This document shows positions 2,815 through 59,756 of a DNA stretch of 64,000 nucleotides, piece after piece. The position numbers and the translations under genes were made by a program. The DNA lies in contig CAYGGK010000001.1 in assembly GCA_964349555.1 (NCBI GenBank), positions 49,486-113,485 of the forward strand, in the 5' to 3' direction. The DNA is from an uncultured Candidatus Saccharibacteria bacterium (GTDB lineage Bacteria > Patescibacteriota > Minisyncoccia > Phycocordibacterales > Phycocordibacteraceae). The first letter of the stretch is position 1; each line of letters opens with the position of its first letter. Under the pieces are notes generated by a model. The model saw only the letters and a program-made list of their open reading frames with translations. It was not told where the DNA came from and made no database searches.

Positions 2815-3981
2815 TTACTTCTTCTTGCCGGCGAAGGTGAGCGTCATGCGCTGTTCCTTCGGCTCAAAGAGCGCGATGGTGAATGGGTACGTCTTACCGA
2901 GCTCAAGTGTTTCGCGGAGCTCGGCAGGCGTCGCAAATTCGCTCACGTGCACGAGGCCGGCGATGCCTTCCTCGATGGAGGCGAGTGCGCCGTGTTTGTT
3001 GTACTTGATAACGACGCCCAATACCTCCATACCCTTCGTATAACGCTCGGCGGCGGTGTGCCACGGATTCTCCTTGAGCGCTTTGATGGAAAGAGAAATT
3101 TTTCCGTCCTTTATCTCGATCACCTTGACGCGCACCTTGTCGCCGACCGCACAGAACATACGAGGGTCTTCCACGAGGCCCCAATCCAGCTCGCTGATAT
3201 GTACGAGACCTTCCAATCCCGGCTCCACTTTTACAAAGACACCAAAATCTACGATACCCGTCACCTCGCCTTCTGCGGTATCGTCAACCTGATACTTATC
3301 AATGATGGATGCCTTTTCTTCGGTTTCGTCTCCTACACGTTCCGAGAAAATAAGCTTGCCCTCCTTCGGATCAGCGGTGATGATACGCACCGATAAGGGG
3401 CGTCCGACGAGATTCATGAGTTCGCCGAGAATTTTATCTTTATCGCCTTCCGGCACACGCGGGTAGTGCTCCTTGGACAGTTGTGAAGCAGGGAGAAACC
3501 CAGCGATACCTTGCCACGAGAGGATGAGTCCGCCCTTGTTCGCCTCTTCAACAACGAGCGAATACGGCGTCTGCGAGAGAATCGCCGTCTCCGCTTCGCC
3601 CCAAATAGCCGCTTGCCGCGCCTCCTTAAGCGACAGCTCTATGTAGCCGTCGCGCCCGGCAGAATCCACCACCTTCGCACTGATGAGGTCTCCGGGATTC
3701 GCCTTGCGCAACACGTCTGCGGCGTTTAGGTATTCACGACCATAGATAATGCCTGTCCCGAAGGGAGGGAGGTCAACGTACACACGACCGCGACTAATCG
3801 CAATAATCGTGCCTTCAACAAGGTCGCCAACCGACGGTGGCATCGCTATGGCGTCAAGCATTCTGGCCATCGGGTGGCCCTCTGGTAGATGAATTGTCGA
3901 TGGCGGAACAATCTTTTCTTCGGACTTCTCAGACATGGTGTATAACGGTGCGGATTTTCGAGAAACGTACTCCGACGACAC
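2815..3981 (-). CDS. rpsA: 30S ribosomal protein S1 (four S1 domains)
   Basis: Repeated S1-domain signatures (G.V..I...G.FV.L..G..GL.H.SE). Confidence 0.8.
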   Translation of the reverse strand: MSSEYVSRKSAPLYTMSEKSEEKIVPPSTIHLPEGHPMARMLDAIAMPPSVGDLVEGTIIAISRGRVYVDLPPFGTGIIYGREYLNAADVLRKANPGDLISAKVVDSAGRDGYIELSLKEARQAAIWGEAETAILSQTPYSLVVEEANKGGLILSWQGIAGFLPASQLSKEHYPRVPEGDKDKILGELMNLVGRPLSVRIITADPKEGKLIFSERVGDETEEKASIIDKYQVDDTAEGEVTGIVDFGVFVKVEPGLEGLVHISELDWGLVEDPRMFCAVGDKVRVKVIEIKDGKISLSIKALKENPWHTAAERYTKGMEVLGVVIKYNKHGALASIEEGIAGLVHVSEFATPAELRETLELGKTYPFTIALFEPKEQRMTLTFAGKKK

Positions 3982-5130: not shown

Positions 5131-7617
5131 ATGGCGCGTGAGAAAGCAGATATAAAAGATGGAGAGGGTTCCCCCCTGGGGAACCCTATCGCCGCAAATG
5201 TCATCAATCAGCCGATCGTGTCGGAGATGCGGACGTCGTATGTGGATTACGCGATGTCGGTTATTACTGGCCGCGCTCTGCCGGACGTGCGCGACGGGCT
5301 GAAGCCCGTGCATCGCCGCATCCTCTACGCGATGAAAGAGCTGGGGCTTCTCCCGGGGGCGAAGTTTCGCAAGAGCGCTTTGGTGGTCGGCGACGTGCTC
5401 GGTAAGTACCATCCGCACGGCGACACCGCAGTTTACGACTCAATGACCAAGATGGCGCAAGAATTCTCACACCGGTACCCGCTCGTTCTTGGGCAGGGCA
5501 ACTTTGGCTCCATTGACGGCGACTCGCCGGCGGCGATGCGCTACACCGAAGCAAAGATTTCTCGTATCGCCGAGGCGCTTCTTGCCGATTTGGAAAAAGA
5601 CACCGTCGCGTGGAATCCCAACTACGACGCGACACGCGAAGAACCACGAGTGCTCCCCGCCGCGCTCCCAAACCTGCTTTTAAACGGCACGCTCGGCATC
5701 GCGGTCGGCATGGCGACTAATATTCCACCGCACAATCTCCGCGAAGTCGTTGCCGCAACCATCCATCTTATTGATAATCCGGAGGCAACGACCGATGATC
5801 TTTTACAATTCGTGAAGGGTCCCGACTTCCCGCTTGGCGGCGTCGCCTTCGGTCAGGCTGACATTAAGCACGCCTATGGGTCCGGCAAGGGCTCGCTTGT
5901 TGTGCGAGGCGAAGCGGAGATTGTTGACGATGGGAAAAAGGATACAAAAATTGTCATCACCTCTATTCCGTATCGCGTGAACAAGAGCGAGCTCATCAGC
6001 CGCATCGCTGACTTGGTACAAGAAAAAAAGATTGAAGGCATCCGCGACTTGCGCGACGAGTCAACCTCGGATATCCGCGTCGTGGTGGAGTTGAAGGGCA
6101 CCGCGCATCCGCAGGCCGTTTTGAATAATCTATACAAATACACCGAGCTGGAAAGCACGTTCCACTACAACATGCTCGCGCTCGTCGACGGCGTGCCGGA
6201 GATGCTTTCGCTTTCCGGTATGCTGGAGCACTTCGTGGAGCACCGCCGAGAGGTGGTGAAGCTCCGCACGGAGTACGACCTGCGTCAGGCGACTGCAAGG
6301 GAGCACATTCTTCTCGGTCTCTCCAAGGCGCTCGACCATATTGACGAGGTCATTGCGATTATTAAGAAGTCTGCCGACGTTTCTTCCGCGAGCCTCGCGC
6401 TTCAAAAGAAGTTCGGTTTCTCTGCGCTCCAGACTGCGGCGATTCTTGAAATGAAACTCTCCAAGCTCGCGGGGCTTGAGCGTAAGAAAATCGAGGACGA
6501 GTTATCCGAGGTGCAGGCGCTCATCAAGACGTTGAAAGAGATTCTCTCCTCAGCGAAAAATATTCTCGCCGTTGTCAAGAAAGAGCTTACGGAGCTCAGT
6601 GAAAAATACGGCGACGACCGTCGCACTAGAATCGTGAAAGGCGGCGTGCAGAATATTTCCGCAGAGGACCTCGTGCCGGACGAAGACTCGATGTTGGTGC
6701 TTACCCAAGGAGGATATGTGAAGAGGACGAACCCGAGCGAATACAAGATACAAAAACGCGGCGGTGTCGGCGTCGTGGATATTGCGACGAAAGAAGAAGA
6801 CATCGTGACGCACTTCCTCGTAACGAATGCGCACAGCGACCTGCTGTTCTTCACCAACTTTGGCAAAGTGTACCAGCTCAAGATGTACGAAATACCGGAA
6901 GGGAAGCGCGCGACTAAAGGCAAGAGCATTATGAACTTCCTACCGCTCTCCGCTGAGGAGTCGGTGACGAGCGTGCTTGCGGTGCCGAAAGGGGCGGCGC
7001 TCAACGCCTCATCTGTTATGTTCGTGACGGAAGCGGGCGCGGTGAAGAGGGTAGCGGCGAAGAGTTTCGCCGACGTGCGCCGTTCCGGTATCATCGCGAT
7101 TACTCTGAAGAAAGGCGACACGCTCGTCTCAGCCCATCTTGCAGGAGAGGGCGATACCGTGTCTATCGTCACCGCGAAGGGACAGTCAATCCGTTTTGAG
7201 GTTGATGATGTTCGCGAAATGGGTCGTACCGCCGGAGGTGTGCGCGGTATGAGTGTGAAGAAGGGAGATCGCGTGGTCTCGGCTGAAGTCATTTCTGCCA
7301 CGGCCTCCGATGCGTCTATCCTCGTTATCATGAGCAAGGGTTACGGTAAGCGCACAAAAATTTCAGAATATAAGGTACAAGGTCGCGGAGGCTCGGGTAT
7401 GAAAACAGCCAATATCACGCCGAAGACTGGCGAGATTATCGGCGCGAAGGTTGTTATCGGTAGCTTGGAAGGAGAAGAGCTTGTTGTCATTTCTAAAAAA
7501 GGACAGGTAATCCGTACTTCGGTCTCTGGGATTCCGCTTCTTTCTCGTGCCACTCAAGGCGTTCGCATTATGAAGCTCTATCCTGGCGACTCCATCGCCA
7601 GCATGGTGGCACTGTAG
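5131..7617 (+). CDS. gyrA: DNA gyrase subunit A
   Basis: [29 protein letters not shown], the active-site region, and C-terminal beta-pinwheel repeats. Confidence 0.95.
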
Positions 7618-7624
7618 AAAATTC

Positions 7625-7921
7625 ATGGAGCAGTGGCACATCTTGGATCGGAACGGTAACCCAGAGAAAGAAGAGGAGTTGCCGGAGCGACCAGCAGATT
7701 CGAATCCAGCAGAAGGACAGGCGTTTCGGCCTTGGTACAAACAAGAAGAACATTTACATATCGAAAGTAATGCCATCAAGGGTATTCATGCCCATGGGAT
7801 GTTACAAACAGTTCAAGAACGCTTGCATCACTACTTAAGCAAAGAACCTCAGATCCTTGCGGAATTTGGAGGGAGCGAAGATGTCCTTCTTCCTACTGTC
7901 GATAATTTCCTCGAACAATGA
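7625..7921 (+). CDS. Hypothetical acidic protein
   Basis: ORF only; 4-nt overlap (ATGA) with the next gene. Confidence 0.25.
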   Translation: MEQWHILDRNGNPEKEEELPERPADSNPAEGQAFRPWYKQEEHLHIESNAIKGIHAHGMLQTVQERLHHYLSKEPQILAEFGGSEDVLLPTVDNFLEQ

Positions 7922-8226
7922 AAAAGGTTGTTGTGACGGTGCCGGTGGGGCATGCAGACAAAGTTCGGCAGGCGATAGGCGAGGCGGGTGGCGGGAAAGT
8001 CGGGAAGTATTCTTTCTGTAGTTTCAGTGTGCGTGGCACTGGACGATTTTTACCGGGTGATGGAGCGAAGCCCGCGATTGGCAAGGTAGGAAAAATTGAA
8101 GAAGTTGAGGAAGAGCAAATTGAGATTAATTGCGACGATGTTCTCGTCGAGGATGTCGTAGGAGCCATCCGTCGCGTACACCCCTACGAAGAGCCATCAA
8201 TCGACATCTACCTACTCGAAAACTAA
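7918..8226 (+). CDS. Stand-alone PII-like domain protein resembling the insert domain of NIF3/YqfO (COG3323-like)
   Basis: Pattern VVV.VP..H...V..A...AGGGK.GKYS.CSF...GTG.F.P..GA.P.IG..G.IEEVEE..IE...HPYEEPSIDIY, as remembered for the YqfO insert domain. Confidence 0.45.
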   Translation: MKKVVVTVPVGHADKVRQAIGEAGGGKVGKYSFCSFSVRGTGRFLPGDGAKPAIGKVGKIEEVEEEQIEINCDDVLVEDVVGAIRRVHPYEEPSIDIYLLEN

Positions 8227-8251
8227 CGCAGTAAAATATCCTTATCCACAT

Positions 8252-8275
8252 CCGGTCGGTCAGAGATAAGAATAT
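8252..8275. repeat. Repeat R1a: CCGGTCGGTCAGAGATAAGAATAT upstream of PaaX-like gene 1; embedded in a short inverted repeat (CTTATC...GATAAG)
   Basis: Seen directly. A second copy lies at 8901-8924, downstream of the same gene. Confidence 0.7.
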
Positions 8276-15617: not shown

Positions 15618-15669
15618 TGGGAAATCAACAATTCTTGCTATAGCAGAAGTTGTTGATAGTTGTTATTTA
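15618..15669. repeat. Repeat R2a: ~52-bp element containing the imperfect palindrome ATCAACAATTCTTGCTATAGCAGAAGTTGTTGAT
   Basis: Seen directly. Copies at 16268-16301 (same orientation) and 30199-30250 (reverse complement, 1 mismatch in the core). Confidence 0.8.
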
Positions 15670-16267: not shown

Positions 16268-16301
16268 ATCAACAATTCTTGCTATAGCAGAAGTTGTTGA
16301 T
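16268..16301. repeat. Repeat R2b (core palindrome copy) upstream of PaaX-like gene 2
   Basis: Identical 34-bp core to R2a. Confidence 0.8.
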
Positions 16302-25743: not shown

Positions 25744-26634
25744 TTAAGACACTGTGTGTCCTAGCTTACGGAGCCAAGCCTTCTGGCGGCGGGCGTACTG
25801 CCAGAGTTTTGCTGAGAGGGTGGGGAAGAGAGATTCTTCGGCGCGCTCCTTTCGTAGAAATTCGCCGATGATTTTGTACTCAAGACCAAGCTCGTTCAGA
25901 CGCTCATCGCCCACCTCTTCGCGTACGCGGCGCACCTCGTCAATAAGCCCCCGCTCAAGCGCGCTTTTGAGACGTGTGTCTATCCGCGCGCGCAGTTCCT
26001 CGCGCGAGGGGTCAATTACAATCCATTCAATCAGGTATCTCAAAGATATGCCTATAGGTACGTCTTTGGGACACCTCAACGGAACAGTGCCGAGGAACTC
26101 GATGATTTCGAGCGCGCGGATGAGGCGTCGGCGGTTCTGCGGGTCAAGCTCGCTTGCGCGCCGCGGGTCTACTTCTCTAATTCGCGCGAATAGTTCCTCA
26201 GTGGGGAGTGCCTCAAGCTCCTCGCGTAGTGCAGGATTAGCATCAACTCCCGTCGGGAGGCCGCGGAGCAAGGCGTCAAAATAAAAGTGCGTCCCACCGA
26301 CAAGGATCGGGAGTTTCCCGCGAGACGATATTTCCTCAATCAGGCGCGTCGCATCGGCCACGAAATCTCCGGCGGAGTACTTCTCGCTCGCGCCACGGAT
26401 ATCAATAAGGTGATGCGGAACCCCCTGCATTTCTTCAAGCGTTATTTTCTCAGTGCCGATATCAAGCCCGCGATATACCTGTCGTGAGTCAACCGAGATC
26501 ACCTCGCTCATGAAGGGTTTCGTAAATCCTTCATTTGATGAAGGATTTACGAAACCCTTCAAAGCAATTTCAACGGCCCGAGAGGATTTACCCGAGGCGG
26601 TGGGGCCGGCTATGCAGAGGATTTGTGTTGCCAT
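25744..26634 (-). CDS. miaA: tRNA dimethylallyltransferase
   Basis: P-loop ILCIAGPTASGKSS and ISVDSRQVYRGLDIGTEK, HHLIDI. Carries a 16-aa in-frame insertion right after the P-loop. Confidence 0.85.
   Translation of the reverse strand: MATQILCIAGPTASGKSSRAVEIALKGFVNPSSNEGFTKPFMSEVISVDSRQVYRGLDIGTEKITLEEMQGVPHHLIDIRGASEKYSAGDFVADATRLIEEISSRGKLPILVGGTHFYFDALLRGLPTGVDANPALREELEALPTEELFARIREVDPRRASELDPQNRRRLIRALEIIEFLGTVPLRCPKDVPIGISLRYLIEWIVIDPSREELRARIDTRLKSALERGLIDEVRRVREEVGDERLNELGLEYKIIGEFLRKERAEESLFPTLSAKLWQYARRQKAWLRKLGHTVS
26511..26561. repeat. Perfect palindrome (23-bp arms TGAAGGGTTTCGTAAATCCTTCA / TGAAGGATTTACGAAACCCTTCA, 5-nt spacer) inserted in-frame within miaA
   Basis: Seen directly; it encodes the extra GFVNPSSNEGFTKPF segment. 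Confidence 0.85.
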
Positions 26635-26676
26635 TAAGCGCGATGGTATCATGATAGTGAGGTAACCAATACACAT

Positions 26677-27336
26677 ATGAAAGAGACCAAAAGTAATTAT
26701 TGCGGGCACTGCGGAGAGTTCCACGACACGGTTCGTGACTACTCCTCAATGGTGAAGGTTGGAGAACCCGTACCAGACTTTGAATTTGAAGTGTTCCATA
26801 AAGACACGATTACAACGATGAGCTTGTTGCAACTGCGCGGGAAATGGGCGATCATCGTTTTCTATCCGGCCGACTTCACCTTCATCTGCCCGACTGAACT
26901 TGAAGAATTGGCGGAGCTGTATCCGAAGTTCCAAGGGCTGAACGCAGAAATCATCTCTGTCTCGACCGACACCGTCTTCACGCACAAGGCGTGGCATGAT
27001 GCGTCGAGCGGTATTAAGGCGATCAAGTATCCGATGGCGGCCGACCCTTCGGGTAAACTCGCTCGCGCGTTCGGCGTTCTCATTGAAGGAGAGGAGACGG
27101 CACTTGCGCCGGACGAAGGTCTTGCTCTCCGCGGGACATTCATCATTGACCCTGCGGGCATTCTGCGCGGAGCGGAGATTAACGACAACTCAATCGGCCG
27201 CAAAGGCTCGGAGACTTTGCGTAAGCTCCAGGCGGCGCAGTACGTGGAAACGCACAAGGGCCAAGTCTGTCCGGCTTCGTGGGAGCCAGGTTCCGACACA
27301 CTCGAACCGGGCCTGGACTTAGTGGGGAAGTTATAA
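26677..27336 (+). CDS. Typical 2-Cys peroxiredoxin (AhpC/TSA family) with N-terminal CxxC-containing extension
   Basis: FYPADFTFICPTELE peroxidatic Cys motif and resolving Cys near the C-terminus (VCP). An alternative start at 26749 is possible. Confidence 0.85.
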   Translation: MKETKSNYCGHCGEFHDTVRDYSSMVKVGEPVPDFEFEVFHKDTITTMSLLQLRGKWAIIVFYPADFTFICPTELEELAELYPKFQGLNAEIISVSTDTVFTHKAWHDASSGIKAIKYPMAADPSGKLARAFGVLIEGEETALAPDEGLALRGTFIIDPAGILRGAEINDNSIGRKGSETLRKLQAAQYVETHKGQVCPASWEPGSDTLEPGLDLVGKL

Positions 27337-30198: not shown

Positions 30199-30250
30199 AA
30201 TAAACACTATCAACAACTTTTGCTATAGCAAGAATTGTTGATTTCCCAGG
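30199..30250. repeat. Repeat R2c: reverse-complement copy of the R2 palindromic element in the topA-rel intergenic region
   Basis: The core ATCAACAACTTTTGCTATAGCAAGAATTGTTGAT is the reverse complement of the R2a core with 1 mismatch; the flanking ~10 bp on each side also match R2a. Confidence 0.8.
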
Positions 30251-30295: not shown

Positions 30296-32770
30296 TTATT
30301 TCAAGTACTCGGCGGCTGAGGTGGGAGTGAGGGACTCCGGAGAAACTGTATCGGGCAGATAGATGCGGCGAAGGCCTTTTTTTAAGAAAACGCCTTGTTT
30401 TGATTTGTAGAGCACAAGTTGTTTGCCGGTGCGCGGGTGTGCGCCGATCTCTTTTACTATCTCAACGCCCTTGGGTGGCCGCTTGGGCTCGGCAAGCAGA
30501 GTGAGGGCTTCGTCCAGCGTAATAGTATATGGGTCGCCGACCTTTGCCTTCAGAGAACGAAACTCTCCGTCGCTTCCCACATACGGCCCGAATCTTCCGG
30601 TTGAGGCGAACACCGGCTTGTCGGTGGAAGGATGCATTCCCAACTCGCGCGGAAGCGAGAGGTATTTAATTGCGTCTGCGAGCGTTATCTGCAAGAGGTC
30701 GGTACCGGCGGGAATGCTCGCACGTTTGGCGGCCGTCTTCGGCCGCCCCTTCCCACGCTTCTTTTCGCCGCTTTTTGCGGCGCCCCGCGGAGCCTTGGCG
30801 GAGTGGGGTTCTTTATCCAGCGCCCCCTCCACCGAAGCTTCGGAGGGCAACGGCATCTCCACGTACGGTCCGAATCGTCCAGTCTTTATATAAATTGGCG
30901 CACCGGTCTCCGGATGGGTGCCGATAGGTTCGTCATTTTTAAGTTCAGCACCATCTTCAGTCCGTATACCGAGGCATTCTGGATATTTTTTACAACTCAT
31001 AAAGACCCCGCCGCGGCCGAGCTTGTTCTCCATAGGGCTTCCGCAGAGCGGACATGGGAATTCTTTTGAAACGTCGCCGAGCGAAGTCGCCTTTGGGAGC
31101 TTATCCTTTGCCCGTACAGCTTTATCAAATGGACCATAAAATGCAGTCAGTGTTTCGGTATATCCGCGTTCGCCGCGAGCGATTTCATCGAGTTCGTCCT
31201 CCATTTCTGCAGTGAAAGTATCACTTACGTAATTTGGAAAGTTTTCCTCGAGCCACCCGGAGACGACCATGCCGGTGGCCGTTGGTTTAAGCGCGCGCGC
31301 AAGTTTCTCCACATATCCGCGATCCTGGATGGTTTTCATAATAGAAGCATAGGTTGACGGACGACCAATACCGCGTTTTTCCAATTCCTTGATAAGTCCG
31401 GCTTCAGTGTAGCGGTTCGGAGGCTCAGTCTGCTTTTCTTCCGCACCGAGTGAGAGGAGCGAGAGGGGGTCGCCAGTGGAGAGCTTCGGCAACTCCACGT
31501 CCTCTCCTCGCGCCGCCGTATCGAGCGCGAGCCATCCGGGGAAGATCACGCGAGAACCGTTTGCGGTAAAAAGAGGGATATCGATGTCGGCTTTTGCCGC
31601 AACGTTCGTACGCATAATCTTCGCCGAAGACATTTGTGAAGCGAGCGCACGCGTCCGGATTAAATTATATAGATGCACTTCATCCGGCGTAGACCCGGCG
31701 TGTGCGCGAGCCGAGTCGGTCGGGCGTATCGCTTCATGCGCCTCCTGGGCATTCTTACTCGTCGTTTTATACACGCGCACATGCAGATACTCCTTACCGA
31801 ATTCTTTTTCAACAACGCCCGCCATTTTCGCGACCGCCTCTGTTGAGAGACTCACGGAATCCGTTCTCATGTAGGTAATATGTCCGGCCTCGTAGAGTTT
31901 CTGCGCGGCGCGCATCGCTCGGGAGGGCGCGAAGCCAAGGCGCGTCGAGGCCGTCTGTTGGAGCGTTGAGGTGGTAAAGGGAGGGCGAGGGTTACGCTCC
32001 TCGGCTTTTTCAGTGACGCTCGCCACGCTCCACTTCGCCACTCTGCCGGCATCCACTATCTTGTCCGCTTCTTCTCGCGTTGCGGGCTGTTCGGTACATG
32101 TCGTTTGCAATTCCGACTTTCTGCCGGAGGCGGATCCGCCTTTGGCGGAAAAGAGCGCTGAGAGTACGAAGTAGGTTACGGGTATAAAAGCTTTTATTTC
32201 CCGTTCGCGTTCTGCAAGTATCCGGAGCGCCGGCGACTGTACCCTCCCGGCTGACAGGCCGTACCGCACCTTTTTCCAGATCAGGCCGGAGAGATCATAG
32301 CCAACGATGCGATCAAGAACGCGTCGCGCTTCTTGCGCGCGACGCAGATTCTCGTCTATATCTCTCGGATGCTCTATCGCATCCTTGATGGCACTCTCCG
32401 TAATTTCATGATAGACAACGCGTTTAATCAGTTTGGAATTTCGAGTTTGATGCTTCTCGCTTCCCAAGCCATCCCTGATGATTTGGGCGATATGCCACGC
32501 AATCGCTTCGCCCTCGCGGTCAGGGTCGGTCGCGAGGTATATCTCGTCTGCCGACGCCGCCGCGCGCTGTATTTTTTCTATCACGTCGCGTTTATCGGCA
32601 GATATGACATAGCGCGGTATAAAACCACCTTCAATGTCTACCGCGTCTTTATTGCTCTTCGGCAGGTCGCGCACGTGTCCGACCGAAGCGAGAACTTCGT
32701 AGTCCTTGCCGAGATATTTTCCTATGGTTCTCGCCTTGGTTGGCGACTCTACAATCAATAGCCTCTTCAT
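30296..32770 (-). CDS. topA: DNA topoisomerase I
   Basis: Toprim (KRLLIVESPTKARTI), the active-site Tyr region, C-terminal zinc-ribbon and Lys-rich repeats. Confidence 0.95.
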   Translation of the reverse strand: MKRLLIVESPTKARTIGKYLGKDYEVLASVGHVRDLPKSNKDAVDIEGGFIPRYVISADKRDVIEKIQRAAASADEIYLATDPDREGEAIAWHIAQIIRDGLGSEKHQTRNSKLIKRVVYHEITESAIKDAIEHPRDIDENLRRAQEARRVLDRIVGYDLSGLIWKKVRYGLSAGRVQSPALRILAEREREIKAFIPVTYFVLSALFSAKGGSASGRKSELQTTCTEQPATREEADKIVDAGRVAKWSVASVTEKAEERNPRPPFTTSTLQQTASTRLGFAPSRAMRAAQKLYEAGHITYMRTDSVSLSTEAVAKMAGVVEKEFGKEYLHVRVYKTTSKNAQEAHEAIRPTDSARAHAGSTPDEVHLYNLIRTRALASQMSSAKIMRTNVAAKADIDIPLFTANGSRVIFPGWLALDTAARGEDVELPKLSTGDPLSLLSLGAEEKQTEPPNRYTEAGLIKELEKRGIGRPSTYASIMKTIQDRGYVEKLARALKPTATGMVVSGWLEENFPNYVSDTFTAEMEDELDEIARGERGYTETLTAFYGPFDKAVRAKDKLPKATSLGDVSKEFPCPLCGSPMENKLGRGGVFMSCKKYPECLGIRTEDGAELKNDEPIGTHPETGAPIYIKTGRFGPYVEMPLPSEASVEGALDKEPHSAKAPRGAAKSGEKKRGKGRPKTAAKRASIPAGTDLLQITLADAIKYLSLPRELGMHPSTDKPVFASTGRFGPYVGSDGEFRSLKAKVGDPYTITLDEALTLLAEPKRPPKGVEIVKEIGAHPRTGKQLVLYKSKQGVFLKKGLRRIYLPDTVSPESLTPTSAAEYLK

Positions 32771-52742: not shown

Positions 52743-52765
52743 GTACCGAGGGCCGCCCTCGGTAC
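52743..52765. repeat. Palindromic element P-a: GTACCGAGGGCCGCCCTCGGTAC (perfect palindrome), intergenic
   Basis: Seen directly; copies at 52874-52894 and 59515-59535. Confidence 0.8.
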
Positions 52766-52873: not shown

Positions 52874-52894
52874 TACCGAGGGCCACCCTCGGTA
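52874..52894. repeat. Palindromic element P-b: TACCGAGGGCCACCCTCGGTA (1 mismatch), intergenic
   Basis: Seen directly. Confidence 0.75.
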
Positions 52895-58406: not shown

Positions 58407-59756
58407 TCAAGCCAGCTTTTTATAATCAACCTCGCGTTTGCCTTCAGGGATGACGCGCTCAATAACGAATTTTCCATTCTTGAAAGACGCCTCAGTAATT
58501 TTTATGCGTTTCCCATTTTCAAAAAAATACGTGCCGATAGAGTCAGCATAGGCGCGATACTTGTTCCAATTCTCTTCGGCGGGAGCGTCAAGCGAGAGAA
58601 GACCGTCTTCTTTTTTGATTTTATACGCGCGCGTTGCCTGCGAAGTGTCCTGCGGAGTCGGCGCGAGGTTTCCTTCCAAATATTCCGGGAGCGTTTCAAC
58701 AAGAAGCTTCGCGCCCATCTCGACAAGACGAGGCCGAAGTTCTCGCACAGTTTCATCTGGCCTGATAGGTGTCGCCTCCTGCGCGAGCACGTCGCCTGCA
58801 TCGAGTTCTTTTGCCATTTTCTGTATCGTCACTCCCGTTTCACTTTCTCCCGCGAGAAGAGCAGTTTCGAGAGGTGTTGCTCCTCGATATTTCGGCAGAA
58901 GCGAATAATGCACGTTTAGGACGCCGCTCGGGAATGCGTCTATAAGCGTCTCGGGAAATATTTTCCCATAAGCGACGACGAGGGCGTAGTCGCATCCGAG
59001 TGCGCCAATCGTCCTAATGGTCTCTGAGTCCAGCTTTTCTGGAGTCATGACCGGAATGTCGTGCTCGAGGGCGAGAGTCTTCGTTTCTGAGGGAGTGAGA
59101 GCGAGACCTCGGCCTCTCGGAGCGTCTGGAGAGGTGACGACGACCGAGGGCACGAATCCGCGCTCTATGAGAAGAACGAGCGTGTCGCTCGCGACCTTCG
59201 GCGTGCCGAAGTAGGCGAACGAGTGCGCCAGCCCATGCGGGATACGAATAAGATGTGTCGCGTGGTCGGTAAAGAGAATGCCGTTCAAATGATCCACCTC
59301 ATGTTCAAATATCTGCGCCATGAGCCCGCCGCCGCCGCGTTGAAAGTGAGAGCCGTCAATGCGCCTCGCCTTGATAGTGGCACGCTCGTGTCTCTTTGTT
59401 GTGCCGTAGACGCCGTGCACCGAGAGGCACCCTTCGTCCGTAGTCGCTCTTTTACGCGAGGTTTTTACAATCTCAGGGTTCACATACACCTCCACTTCAG
59501 GAGGGAGCACTTCATACCGAGGGCCGCCCTCGGTAGGTTTAGGCGGGGGAAGAGTTCTGTCTTTGCGCACGATGAACACGCGATATGAGACGCCTATTTG
59601 TGGCGCGGCGATAGCGACCCCTTCCGGGGAGCGGTCAAGCGCTTCGCTCATGTCGTTAACCAGGCGCACGAGCTCCGGCGAGCCGAAGAGATTCTCCGGC
59701 ACCGGTTTCGCGACTTCCCGCAGTATGGGCGCACCGTCCTGCACAATTTCTTTCAT
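58407..59756 (-). CDS. def-fmt: Fused peptide deformylase (N-terminus) plus methionyl-tRNA formyltransferase (C-terminus)
   Basis: The N-terminal half has Def motifs GVAIAAPQIG, EGCLS, EHEVDHLNG. The C-terminal half has the Fmt core: HYSLLPKYRGATP and the Fmt C-terminal domain. Single uninterrupted 449-aa ORF. Confidence 0.8.
   Translation of the reverse strand: MKEIVQDGAPILREVAKPVPENLFGSPELVRLVNDMSEALDRSPEGVAIAAPQIGVSYRVFIVRKDRTLPPPKPTEGGPRYEVLPPEVEVYVNPEIVKTSRKRATTDEGCLSVHGVYGTTKRHERATIKARRIDGSHFQRGGGGLMAQIFEHEVDHLNGILFTDHATHLIRIPHGLAHSFAYFGTPKVASDTLVLLIERGFVPSVVVTSPDAPRGRGLALTPSETKTLALEHDIPVMTPEKLDSETIRTIGALGCDYALVVAYGKIFPETLIDAFPSGVLNVHYSLLPKYRGATPLETALLAGESETGVTIQKMAKELDAGDVLAQEATPIRPDETVRELRPRLVEMGAKLLVETLPEYLEGNLAPTPQDTSQATRAYKIKKEDGLLSLDAPAEENWNKYRAYADSIGTYFFENGKRIKITEASFKNGKFVIERVIPEGKREVDYKKLA
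59515..59535. repeat. Palindromic element P-c: TACCGAGGGCCGCCCTCGGTA inserted in-frame within the def portion of def-fmt
   Basis: Seen directly; encodes part of the extra PKPTEGGPRYEV segment. Confidence 0.8.

Follow-up and report, generated by a model that had tools for sequence, protein, structure and literature searches.

A palindrome in the miaA gene

The stretch of DNA analysed here, 64,000 nucleotides of contig CAYGGK010000001.1 from an uncultured Candidatus Saccharibacteria bacterium, will be called the window, and the feature under study is a palindrome in its miaA gene (tRNA dimethylallyltransferase, 296 amino acids). The gene lies on the minus strand (25744-26634), contains the domain PF01715, and its product is a 100% match to protein P0001. 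The palindrome occupies positions 26511-26561 (TGAAGGGTTTCGTAAATCCTTCA TTTGA TGAAGGATTTACGAAACCCTTCA) of the open reading frame (ORF), which is intact and stays open through it. The sequence and its in-frame position within miaA are as described in the initial annotation of this DNA, made from the letters alone. The perfect palindrome reported there was also found, with other lengths: in place of two 23-nt arms and a 5-nt spacer, the repeat finder gave arms of 24 nt that are complementary at all 24 positions (24/24) and a loop of 3 nt.

The first arm (26511-26534; TGAAGGGTTTCGTAAATCCTTCAT on the plus strand) is itself a near-palindromic unit with the apex GGGTTT-CGT-AAATCC, and the second (26538-26561; ATGAAGGATTTACGAAACCCTTCA on the plus strand) is the same kind of unit in inverted orientation, with the apex GGATTT-ACG-AAACCC. 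Each contains one copy of a core conserved in the family described below, GGTTTCGTAAATCC at 26516-26529 and GGATTTACGAAACC at 26543-26556 (both given for the plus strand). The loop (26535-26537), TTG on the plus strand and CAA on the coding strand, is the sole asymmetric part of the element, and both of its orientations occur among relatives. The covariance model R1 recognized the whole element (24 + 3 + 24 nt) with 84.2 bits (E = 2.6e-23). An 81-nt stretch was predicted to fold with -44.3 kcal/mol as RNA (z = -9.35) and with -28.4 kcal/mol as DNA (z = -10.0).

When the window was searched with the 23-mer at up to 3 mismatches, only the two arms were found, and 100 dinucleotide-preserving shuffles yielded no match. 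There was thus no second copy by mismatch search, and with model R1 run with filters off the next best hit was a generic hairpin (E = 0.1). Comparison of the element with Rfam returned only sub-threshold look-alikes of miRNA hairpins, and scans for terminators and promoters gave no terminator-like or promoter-like signal overlapping it.

The insert in the MiaA protein

The host protein is a MiaA by its IPPT domain (PF01715), its P-loop GPTASGK and its fold. The AlphaFold2 model matched the E. coli MiaA-tRNA structure 3FOZ with a TM score of 0.76 (Foldseek E = 2.6e-18), and phmmer found the solved structures 2QGN (E = 4.7e-46) and 2ZM5 (E = 1.8e-37). In the miaA frame the element is read as LKGFVNPSSNEGFTKPFM. 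The opposite strand reads nearly the same peptide, KGFVNPSFDEGFTKPF, as had been predicted from the symmetry of the DNA.

The interval between SGK and SVDS comprises 30 residues in the window protein and 16 in its closest insert-free relatives, which read ALKRNGEII at the site. The net gain is therefore 14 residues (42 nt), and not the approximately 16 estimated originally; the accompanying assumption that canonical MiaA has no residues between the P-loop and ISVDS was mistaken, since the relatives without the insert have 16 there. The ortholog alignment that had been proposed as a check confirmed the insertion itself. HMMER alignment with the solved MiaAs (2QGN/3EXA and 2ZM5/3FOZ) opened a 14-residue gap opposite query residues 26-39, corresponding to 14 codons on the minus strand (26518-26559, KGFVNPSSNEGFTK) that are absent from the solved structures and from relatives without the insert; where exactly the gap falls depends on the alignment. 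The site lies between helix alpha1 and strand beta2, and the canonical residues at this place are helix alpha1 and the start of strand beta2. In the AlphaFold2 model residues 29-40, between a helix (18-24) and a strand (43-47), had a predicted local distance difference test score (pLDDT) below 50, and the remainder superposed on E. coli MiaA.

Covariation of the arms among MiaA orthologs

The 120 closest MiaA clusters, found by protein similarity, served as the ortholog sample. Sixteen residues separate SGK from SVDS in 93 of the 120 (e.g. SSRAVEEALKRNGEII), and 17 of the 120 have GF[VG]NP...GF[TP]KP at the same site, nearly all of these with 30 residues there. The exact window protein is recorded on 4 contigs (NCBI, Logan and ENA). 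At the DNA level, the window was compared with eight further miaA genes that bear the insert, taken from independent assemblies (NCBI, ENA, JGI and Logan), and with two that lack it. All eight other inserts are palindromic in DNA, with stems that differ: locus L003 has G/C in place of the T/A of the window, which gives GFGNP..GFPKP; the stems of L004, L022 and L045 have ATCAT/ATGAT and that of L005 has AACAT/ATGTT; L006 carries a perfect 23 + 1 + 23 palindrome (CCCCGGTC/GACCGGGG), and L007 one of 21 + 9 + 21. The possibility raised in the initial annotation that relatives carry the segment without palindromic DNA did not materialize, the segment-bearing relatives being palindromic throughout.

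The nine genes are mutually only 65-85% identical. In their arms, 96.8% of the cells are paired and 10 of the 24 pairs show changes on both sides, which was reached in none of 500 shuffles. In the frame in which miaA reads the element, third codon positions pair with third codon positions. One fully synonymous double change, between AAT(N)/GGA(G) and AAC(N)/GGG(G), divides the nine copies 5:4, and selection at the protein level cannot produce it. Across the MiaA inserts the replacement of V by G, or the reverse, covaries with that of T by P exactly as base pairing requires. G-U pairs are nearly absent from the arms, which fits DNA complementarity rather than RNA folding.

Around the element, the sequences of L022 and L045 agree over about 130 bases, save for an exact inversion of the loop (CAA in one, TTG in the other). 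The identical stretch suggests a recent recombination tract or strong local constraint, and the inverted loop bears the mark of an event in the DNA itself, of the hairpin or inverted-repeat type. Over their whole compared length the two genes (L022 5364-6308, L045 1-663) are ~85% identical. Locus L004 keeps the element although its neighbouring genes differ.

Some of the protein sequences bear on the history of the insertion. A change from E to I three residues upstream (AVEEAL to AVEIAL) accompanies the insert in 16 of the 17 clusters, and protein P0097 reads AVEIALEGGEII, which resembles a 45-nt deletion of the element from an insert-bearing allele. These two features may indicate one original insertion that was subsequently lost or recombined in places, and are no proof of it. 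The presence and absence of the insert are scattered among the MiaA clusters. P0053 (DFVNPQLIGGFTKSPNG) resembles a decayed copy of the element.

Other small inserts were seen at the identical site (GGPNGAPFG, RLPAGRQ and STSTGEALAR; P0016, P0022, P0115, P0042, P0050, P0060, P0031, P0063 and locus L009). In L009 (miaA at 7385-8254) two small palindromes rich in GC make up the DNA of the insert, GGCCCCAACGGGGCCCCTTTTGGGGGC. Palindromic inserts thus seem to have a hot spot at this site.

The family in other genes and genomes

Among GTDB species representatives the exact 23-mer occurs in one record, the tsaD gene of another genome (L001), with identical 23-nt arms. A search of metagenomes with the pattern GGTTTCGKAAAYCC-N(1-31)-GGRTTTMCGAAACC, degenerate for both cores, found the family core GGTTTCGTAAAYCC ... 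GGRTTTACGAAACC in 57 loci with spacers of 3-15 nt. The suggestion that other copies of the 23-mer might exist was thus answered differently on the two scales, with no further copy in the 64-kb window and related copies in many genes of other genomes. Loci of at most 20 kb in other genomes contain up to 4-5 units each, and arm-type units also occur singly. The family pattern had no match in viral contigs, and a profile of the threefold concatenated peptide, compared with a collection of 5.8 billion proteins, gave 6899 word-sharing candidates and none at E <= 10.

The unit is a near-palindrome with the lower stem ATGAnG and the apex GGRTTT-CGT-AAAYCC. Position counts over 33 copies show ends of the form ATGA.. 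/ ..TCAT, with neither a GTAG nor a CGTC tag. When all host genes were taken together, 90.6% of the arm cells were paired, and double changes were found in 11 pairs. The doublet is better described by one long hairpin than by two separate short ones: in 31 copies, column pair 24-42 of the long hairpin is CG in 18, UA in 12 and something else in 1, whereas column pair 42-52 of the alternative fold is unpaired in 13 of the 31, and the fold with two short hairpins was rejected.

About two thirds of the sampled doublets lie inside long ORFs. All 33 doublets that had a 13-nt spacer and sufficient flanking sequence were inside ORFs of at least 170 amino acids and read GF[VG]NPxxxxGF[TP]KP. The doublets in frame belong to about 19 unrelated protein families with housekeeping functions and are always read in the sole stop-free frame, in which the family peptide is GFVNPxSxxGFTKP. 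Both other frames of the consensus contain TGA, and symmetry extends the same limit to the opposite strand, so that an intragenic copy can persist in just one of the three frames. By Pfam, the hosts include TsaD, GltX, LeuRS, Tgt and MnmA on the tRNA side, DNA polymerase III delta' (HolB), UvrA, UvrB, UvrC, PolA and an HhH-GPD glycosylase in replication and repair, and, among other functions, ATP synthase gamma, MurC, MurD, transketolase, an epimerase and two kinds of methyltransferase. Some of the doublets with shorter spacers are likewise intragenic (uvrA, mnmA, atpG, murC, murD and leuS); the rest of them, and the single units, lie in intergenic gaps just past stop codons.

Two individual loci may be added. 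In L003 a single unit (AAATAAGGGTTTCGTAAACCCATATTTATTTT, 3370-3400) follows the stop codon of the peroxiredoxin gene beside miaA and resembles an intrinsic terminator. The 7-kb contig L062 has the element at the same site in two near-identical holB-like ORFs (1959-1999 and 6078-6118), a local duplication that includes the element.

A transposase gene flanked by family units

In locus L023 an ORF (5531-6217) is accompanied by units of the family. Its product (P0121, Candidatus Kaiserbacteria) matches Pfam Y1_Tnp (PF01797, IS200-like) with 25.6 bits, against a gathering score of 23, and its best and only NCBIfam hit is the equivalog model of the REP-associated tyrosine transposase (RAYT; NF047646) with 37.8 bits, REP standing for repetitive extragenic palindrome. 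The motifs YHVLNRG, NHYHLLL (HUH) and HYIHFNP are legible in the sequence. By these matches, the protein is a distant relative of characterised RAYTs. It had 2413 homologs at E <= 0.001; wherever source names were given, these were Kaiserbacteria, Paceibacterota, Parcubacteria, Patescibacteria group or unclassified 'bacterium'.

A doublet of the family, followed by TATAAT, stands directly upstream of the L023 gene, a single unit directly follows its stop codon, and a third unit lies in frame inside it. In each of the four loci L067-L070, one unit precedes the ATG by 30-35 nt and another lies within the gene; three of these loci also have a unit 13-19 nt past the stop. All five RAYT-like genes examined (L023 and L067-L070, from Kaiserbacteria/Paceibacteria contigs) are thus flanked by single core units in the arrangement known as a REPtron, and in four of the five the unit behind the stop is 5-19 nt away. 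The internal unit (L023 6030-6060; L067 4774; L068 10156; L069 5992; L070 7627; proteins P0121-P0240) is bordered by the FND motif and IVDIHGW and immediately precedes the HUH motif. It was found at the same place in 63 of the 120 top homolog clusters, where orientation and frame decide whether it reads DLRNP, GFVNP or GFTKP, and might serve autoregulation as a hairpin. The copies of a locus have their lower stem in common and the loci differ among themselves; the variant ATGTTGGGTTTACGAAACCCAACAT of L069 is identical with the arms of the L005 miaA copy.

Other RAYT-like genes were seen with different palindromes (L013 1509-2177, L039 8756-9268, L021 3654-4142 and L037 5292-5690). The flanks carry ATGTAGGACGTCCGACGTCCTACAT in L013, with one copy in frame inside the gene, and GTAGCAAGGGTAGCCCTTGCTAC, of the classical GTAG type, in L039; the L021 gene is flanked by ATGTTGGACATCGTAAGTCCAACAT and that of L037 by a longer inverted repeat. 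REPs of the GTAG type flank the RAYT homologs in both L013 and L039. To judge from these sequences, several types of REPtron coexist in these bacteria.

Interpretation and alternative explanations

The palindrome in miaA is very probably an intragenic REP doublet, or REPIN, of a family served by RAYT-type transposases in Patescibacteria. A REPIN consists of two inverted REPs that form a hairpin, shows compensatory changes and belongs to a RAYT gene flanked by the same REPs (Bertels & Rainey 2011, PMC3116915). Here, inverted units forming one hairpin, compensatory changes between them and, in related genomes only, a RAYT gene flanked by the same units were all found. According to this interpretation, the family would be a selfish, non-autonomous repeat of Patescibacteria (Kaiserbacteria/Paceibacteria) genomes, with a unit that forms a hairpin of ~24 nt and, in two inverted copies, a 24-bp hairpin. 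The cognate IS200-like Y1 (HUH) enzyme of RAYT type would act in trans on the single-stranded hairpins, spreading or rebuilding copies. Intragenic copies would survive only in the stop-free frame, read GFVNPxSxxGFTKP, and the miaA copy would in this way have added 14 translated residues to the loop between the P-loop helix and strand beta2. Most likely the insert is a passenger that the enzyme tolerates and not a working part of it, and the element is probably inconsequential for miaA itself. The miaA copy appears to be old, because it is common to many diverged lineages. That an old copy is still a near-perfect Watson-Crick palindrome points to a process at the DNA level that keeps the units identical, for which hairpin-templated correction, conversion from other genomic copies and transposase-mediated rebuilding are candidates.

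Several observations weigh against this assignment or reduce its support. There is one copy and no RAYT gene in the 64-kb window, so membership in a multi-copy family was demonstrated across genomes and not within this genome. Mobility is likewise deduced, no recent insertion or excision having been seen between near-identical strains. The REP superfamilies described so far are tagged with GTAG or CGTC, and the present units have neither. The RAYT-like protein stays below the cut-off of NF047646 (37.8 against 80 bits) and had no sequence match in the Protein Data Bank (PDB). The invariance of the core in the metagenome loci was partly imposed by the search pattern, and unbiased support for its conservation comes only from the MiaA and RAYT sets, which were found by protein similarity. 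A neighbour-joining tree of the 120 MiaA proteins with the insert masked was star-like, with insert-bearing proteins scattered over it; a single ancient insertion is therefore indistinguishable from repeated insertion at a hot spot. Finally, the long retention and the conserved core could reflect a function of the hairpin or of the peptide.

A more elaborate and rather doubtful version of the same idea is a gene-dwelling REPIN lineage in genome-reduced bacteria, whose hairpins or GFVNP..GFTKP peptides would be no plain passengers but have been recruited as a shared control or recognition signal linking the RAYT to this set of nucleic-acid enzymes. Owing to the 27-nt period of the units and the single open frame, wobble positions face one another in the stem, so hairpin and coding sequence can co-evolve, and doublets would persist as perfect palindromes in essential genes of tRNA modification, aminoacylation and DNA repair over deep divergence. 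The unit in frame inside the RAYT gene and the one at its 5' end would fit into such a scheme.

Function could also be sought in the nucleic acid alone, the element being a former repeat kept in miaA and in other tRNA and DNA enzymes as a hairpin for expression control; as an mRNA stem or as cruciform-prone DNA, it could be cleaved in the manner of RNase III sites, make translation pause 73 nt into the ORF or bind a host protein. The great stability of the stem (-44.3 kcal/mol), its preservation by compensatory changes over deep divergence and the conservation of the apex in MiaA and RAYT genes that had not been collected with the DNA pattern are consistent with this, and the units just upstream of the ATG and inside the ORF of RAYT genes suggest autoregulation. 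We nevertheless consider a regulatory hairpin unlikely: the element is missing from 93 of the 120 close MiaA clusters, the genes that carry it have mixed functions, and G-U pairs, acceptable in an RNA structure, hardly occur. The miaA element has no terminator-like or promoter-like signal, and it was retained in L004 next to different genes. Selection could instead have acted on the 14 residues as a lineage-specific functional loop of MiaA, with palindromic DNA as a by-product of a pseudo-symmetric peptide. The conservation of GF[VG]NP..GF[TP]KP in 17 clusters and the AVEEAL-to-AVEIAL change accompanying it in 16 of them speak for such a loop, which is nonetheless very unlikely in view of the same DNA in about 19 unrelated proteins and in intergenic DNA, the covariation across the arms of synonymous third positions and of V/G with T/P as base pairing demands, and the pLDDT below 50 for the segment.

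Correction of quasi-palindromes by template switching is an established mutational mechanism, and the exact loop inversion between L022 and L045 shows that DNA-level events do occur at the site; the palindrome might thus have arisen locally in miaA, where a hairpin induced template switching or duplication, and owe nothing to a mobile family. Such an origin, which cannot explain the identical 23-nt arms in tsaD of another genome, the 14-nt cores shared by 57 loci or the units flanking RAYT genes, is highly improbable, and template switching is a candidate only for the maintenance of the palindrome, being contradicted as its source. The initial annotation had also considered an artefact of sequencing or assembly, such as a chimeric hairpin join, and foldback chimeras can indeed yield perfect palindromes. 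The chance of this is close to nil, because the exact protein occurs on 4 contigs from NCBI, Logan and ENA, eight other independent assemblies have the element at the same miaA site with differing yet complementary arms, and the reading frame remains open. A role as DNA-uptake signal was rejected on account of the far too low density (one copy in 64 kb).

Relation to known palindromic repeats

With described REPIN-RAYT systems the family shares inverted short palindromic units, one long hairpin, compensatory changes, a Y1/HUH gene flanked by units and a single variant among the copies of one genome. It differs from them in its compactness, with 51 bp in total and a 3-nt loop, whereas the published spacings between REPs are 71 and 110 bp (PMC3116915). 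Further differences are that about two thirds of the sampled doublets are in long ORFs and not outside genes, that the hosts belong to the Patescibacteria, and that the RAYT gene usually has an internal unit in frame.

Intragenic REP dimers have been described in ORFs, frequently in uvrA, uvrB, uvrC, polA and other replication and repair genes, and the GTAG- or CGTC-tagged intragenic REPs include RPE-4 and RPE-6 (Rickettsia palindromic elements, RPEs) of R. conorii and the REPs of Opitutus terrae (Di Nocera et al. 2013, PMC3733652). The present units and their head-to-head dimers likewise occur in open ORFs, to which they add a few to a few dozen residues, and uvrA, uvrB, uvrC, polA, holB and a glycosylase gene are hosts here as well. 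In contrast to those REPs, there is no GTAG or CGTC at either end, the stem is 10-11 bp with a loop of 3 nt (CGT/ACG), conservation is confined to the hairpin's apex and does not concern its base, and tRNA-modification enzymes and aminoacyl-tRNA synthetases are also frequent hosts.

The likeness to Rickettsia palindromic elements noted in the initial annotation holds insofar as both insert in frame into many genes; membership in the Rickettsia families is not claimed, the element being a probable REP doublet with an identifiable cognate transposase in relatives. RPE-1 (Ogata et al. 2000, cited in PMC3733652) is also an in-frame palindrome in many unrelated, apparently functional genes, with a strand-symmetric peptide. 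No cognate transposase is known for the CGTC-type rickettsial repeats (PMC3733652). The distinction from RPE-1 to RPE-8 was based on the Patescibacteria host and on the missing CGTC tag, which RPE-4 and RPE-6 have (PMC3733652). RPE-1 differs in host and sequence; the present family has an identifiable cognate transposase, its palindrome is near-perfect at orthologous sites, and with 51 bp the element is shorter. RPE-1 is roughly 100-150 bp long.

Small elements with two hairpins that occur also in coding regions are found in Allomyces mitochondria (double-hairpin elements), and the minute hairpin-loop inversions of chloroplasts, in which a short loop is flipped between perfect inverted repeats, resemble the difference between L022 and L045. 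These organellar hairpins differ from the present element by their unrelated sequences and have no associated transposase.

Neighbouring gene and other palindromes of the window

The divergent gene next to miaA encodes a peroxiredoxin (26677-27336). The start codons of the two genes are only 42 nt apart (26635-26676), so their promoters must overlap coding sequence; one weak promoter-like site was found at 26628-26655. A function of the palindrome as operator of the peroxiredoxin gene was rejected, because the L004 element has other neighbours and no promoter-like or terminator-like site overlaps the palindrome of the window.

The window contains further palindromes. A second family, TTYCYGCCGGAGGCGG-R-TCCGCCTYYGGCGGAAA, is present at 2420-2453 and 32118-32151, and also in L004 (10230-10261) and L008 (3096-3133); it lies in long ORFs (of 275 and 826 amino acids in the window) and is read ..AGGGSASGG.. 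and ..AKGGSASGR... The palindrome TACCGAGGGCCGCCCTCGGTA has three copies (52744-52764, 52874-52894 and 59513-59535), a number of matches that none of 100 shuffles gave; two of them are 109 nt apart, and one is inside an ORF of 449 amino acids and read KPTEGGPRYEV. At about 5165-5190 the palindrome GGGTTCCCC-CCT-GGGGAACCC lies inside an ORF of 830 amino acids and is read GEGSPLGNP. A 34-nt palindrome, ATCAACAATTCTTGCTATAGCAGAAGTTGTTGAT, has three copies outside long ORFs (15624-15657, 16268-16301 and 30209-30242) and could be a shared operator or promoter element.

Significance

REPIN-RAYT systems, intragenic REP dimers and in-frame palindromic elements are already known. The novelty lies in the host phylum and the sequence family, in the small size of its elements, in their occurrence mainly within essential genes and in the unit inside the transposase gene. 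In the literature library that was searched, no paper joined RAYT or REPIN with Patescibacteria, and such repeats seem to be undescribed in these ultra-small bacteria, whose genomes are very small and usually described as repeat-poor.

If the assignment is correct, REPIN-RAYT systems would extend to the huge and mostly uncultivated Patescibacteria, where genomes with little intergenic space would carry such repeats mainly inside essential genes. It would also explain odd inserts of 14-17 residues (GFVNP..GFTKP and its relatives) that would otherwise confuse alignments, structure predictions and annotation. To our knowledge, the mode of action of RAYTs on REPs is still unresolved, and the family would offer a compact 51-bp substrate and a transposase of ~220 amino acids with which it could be tested.

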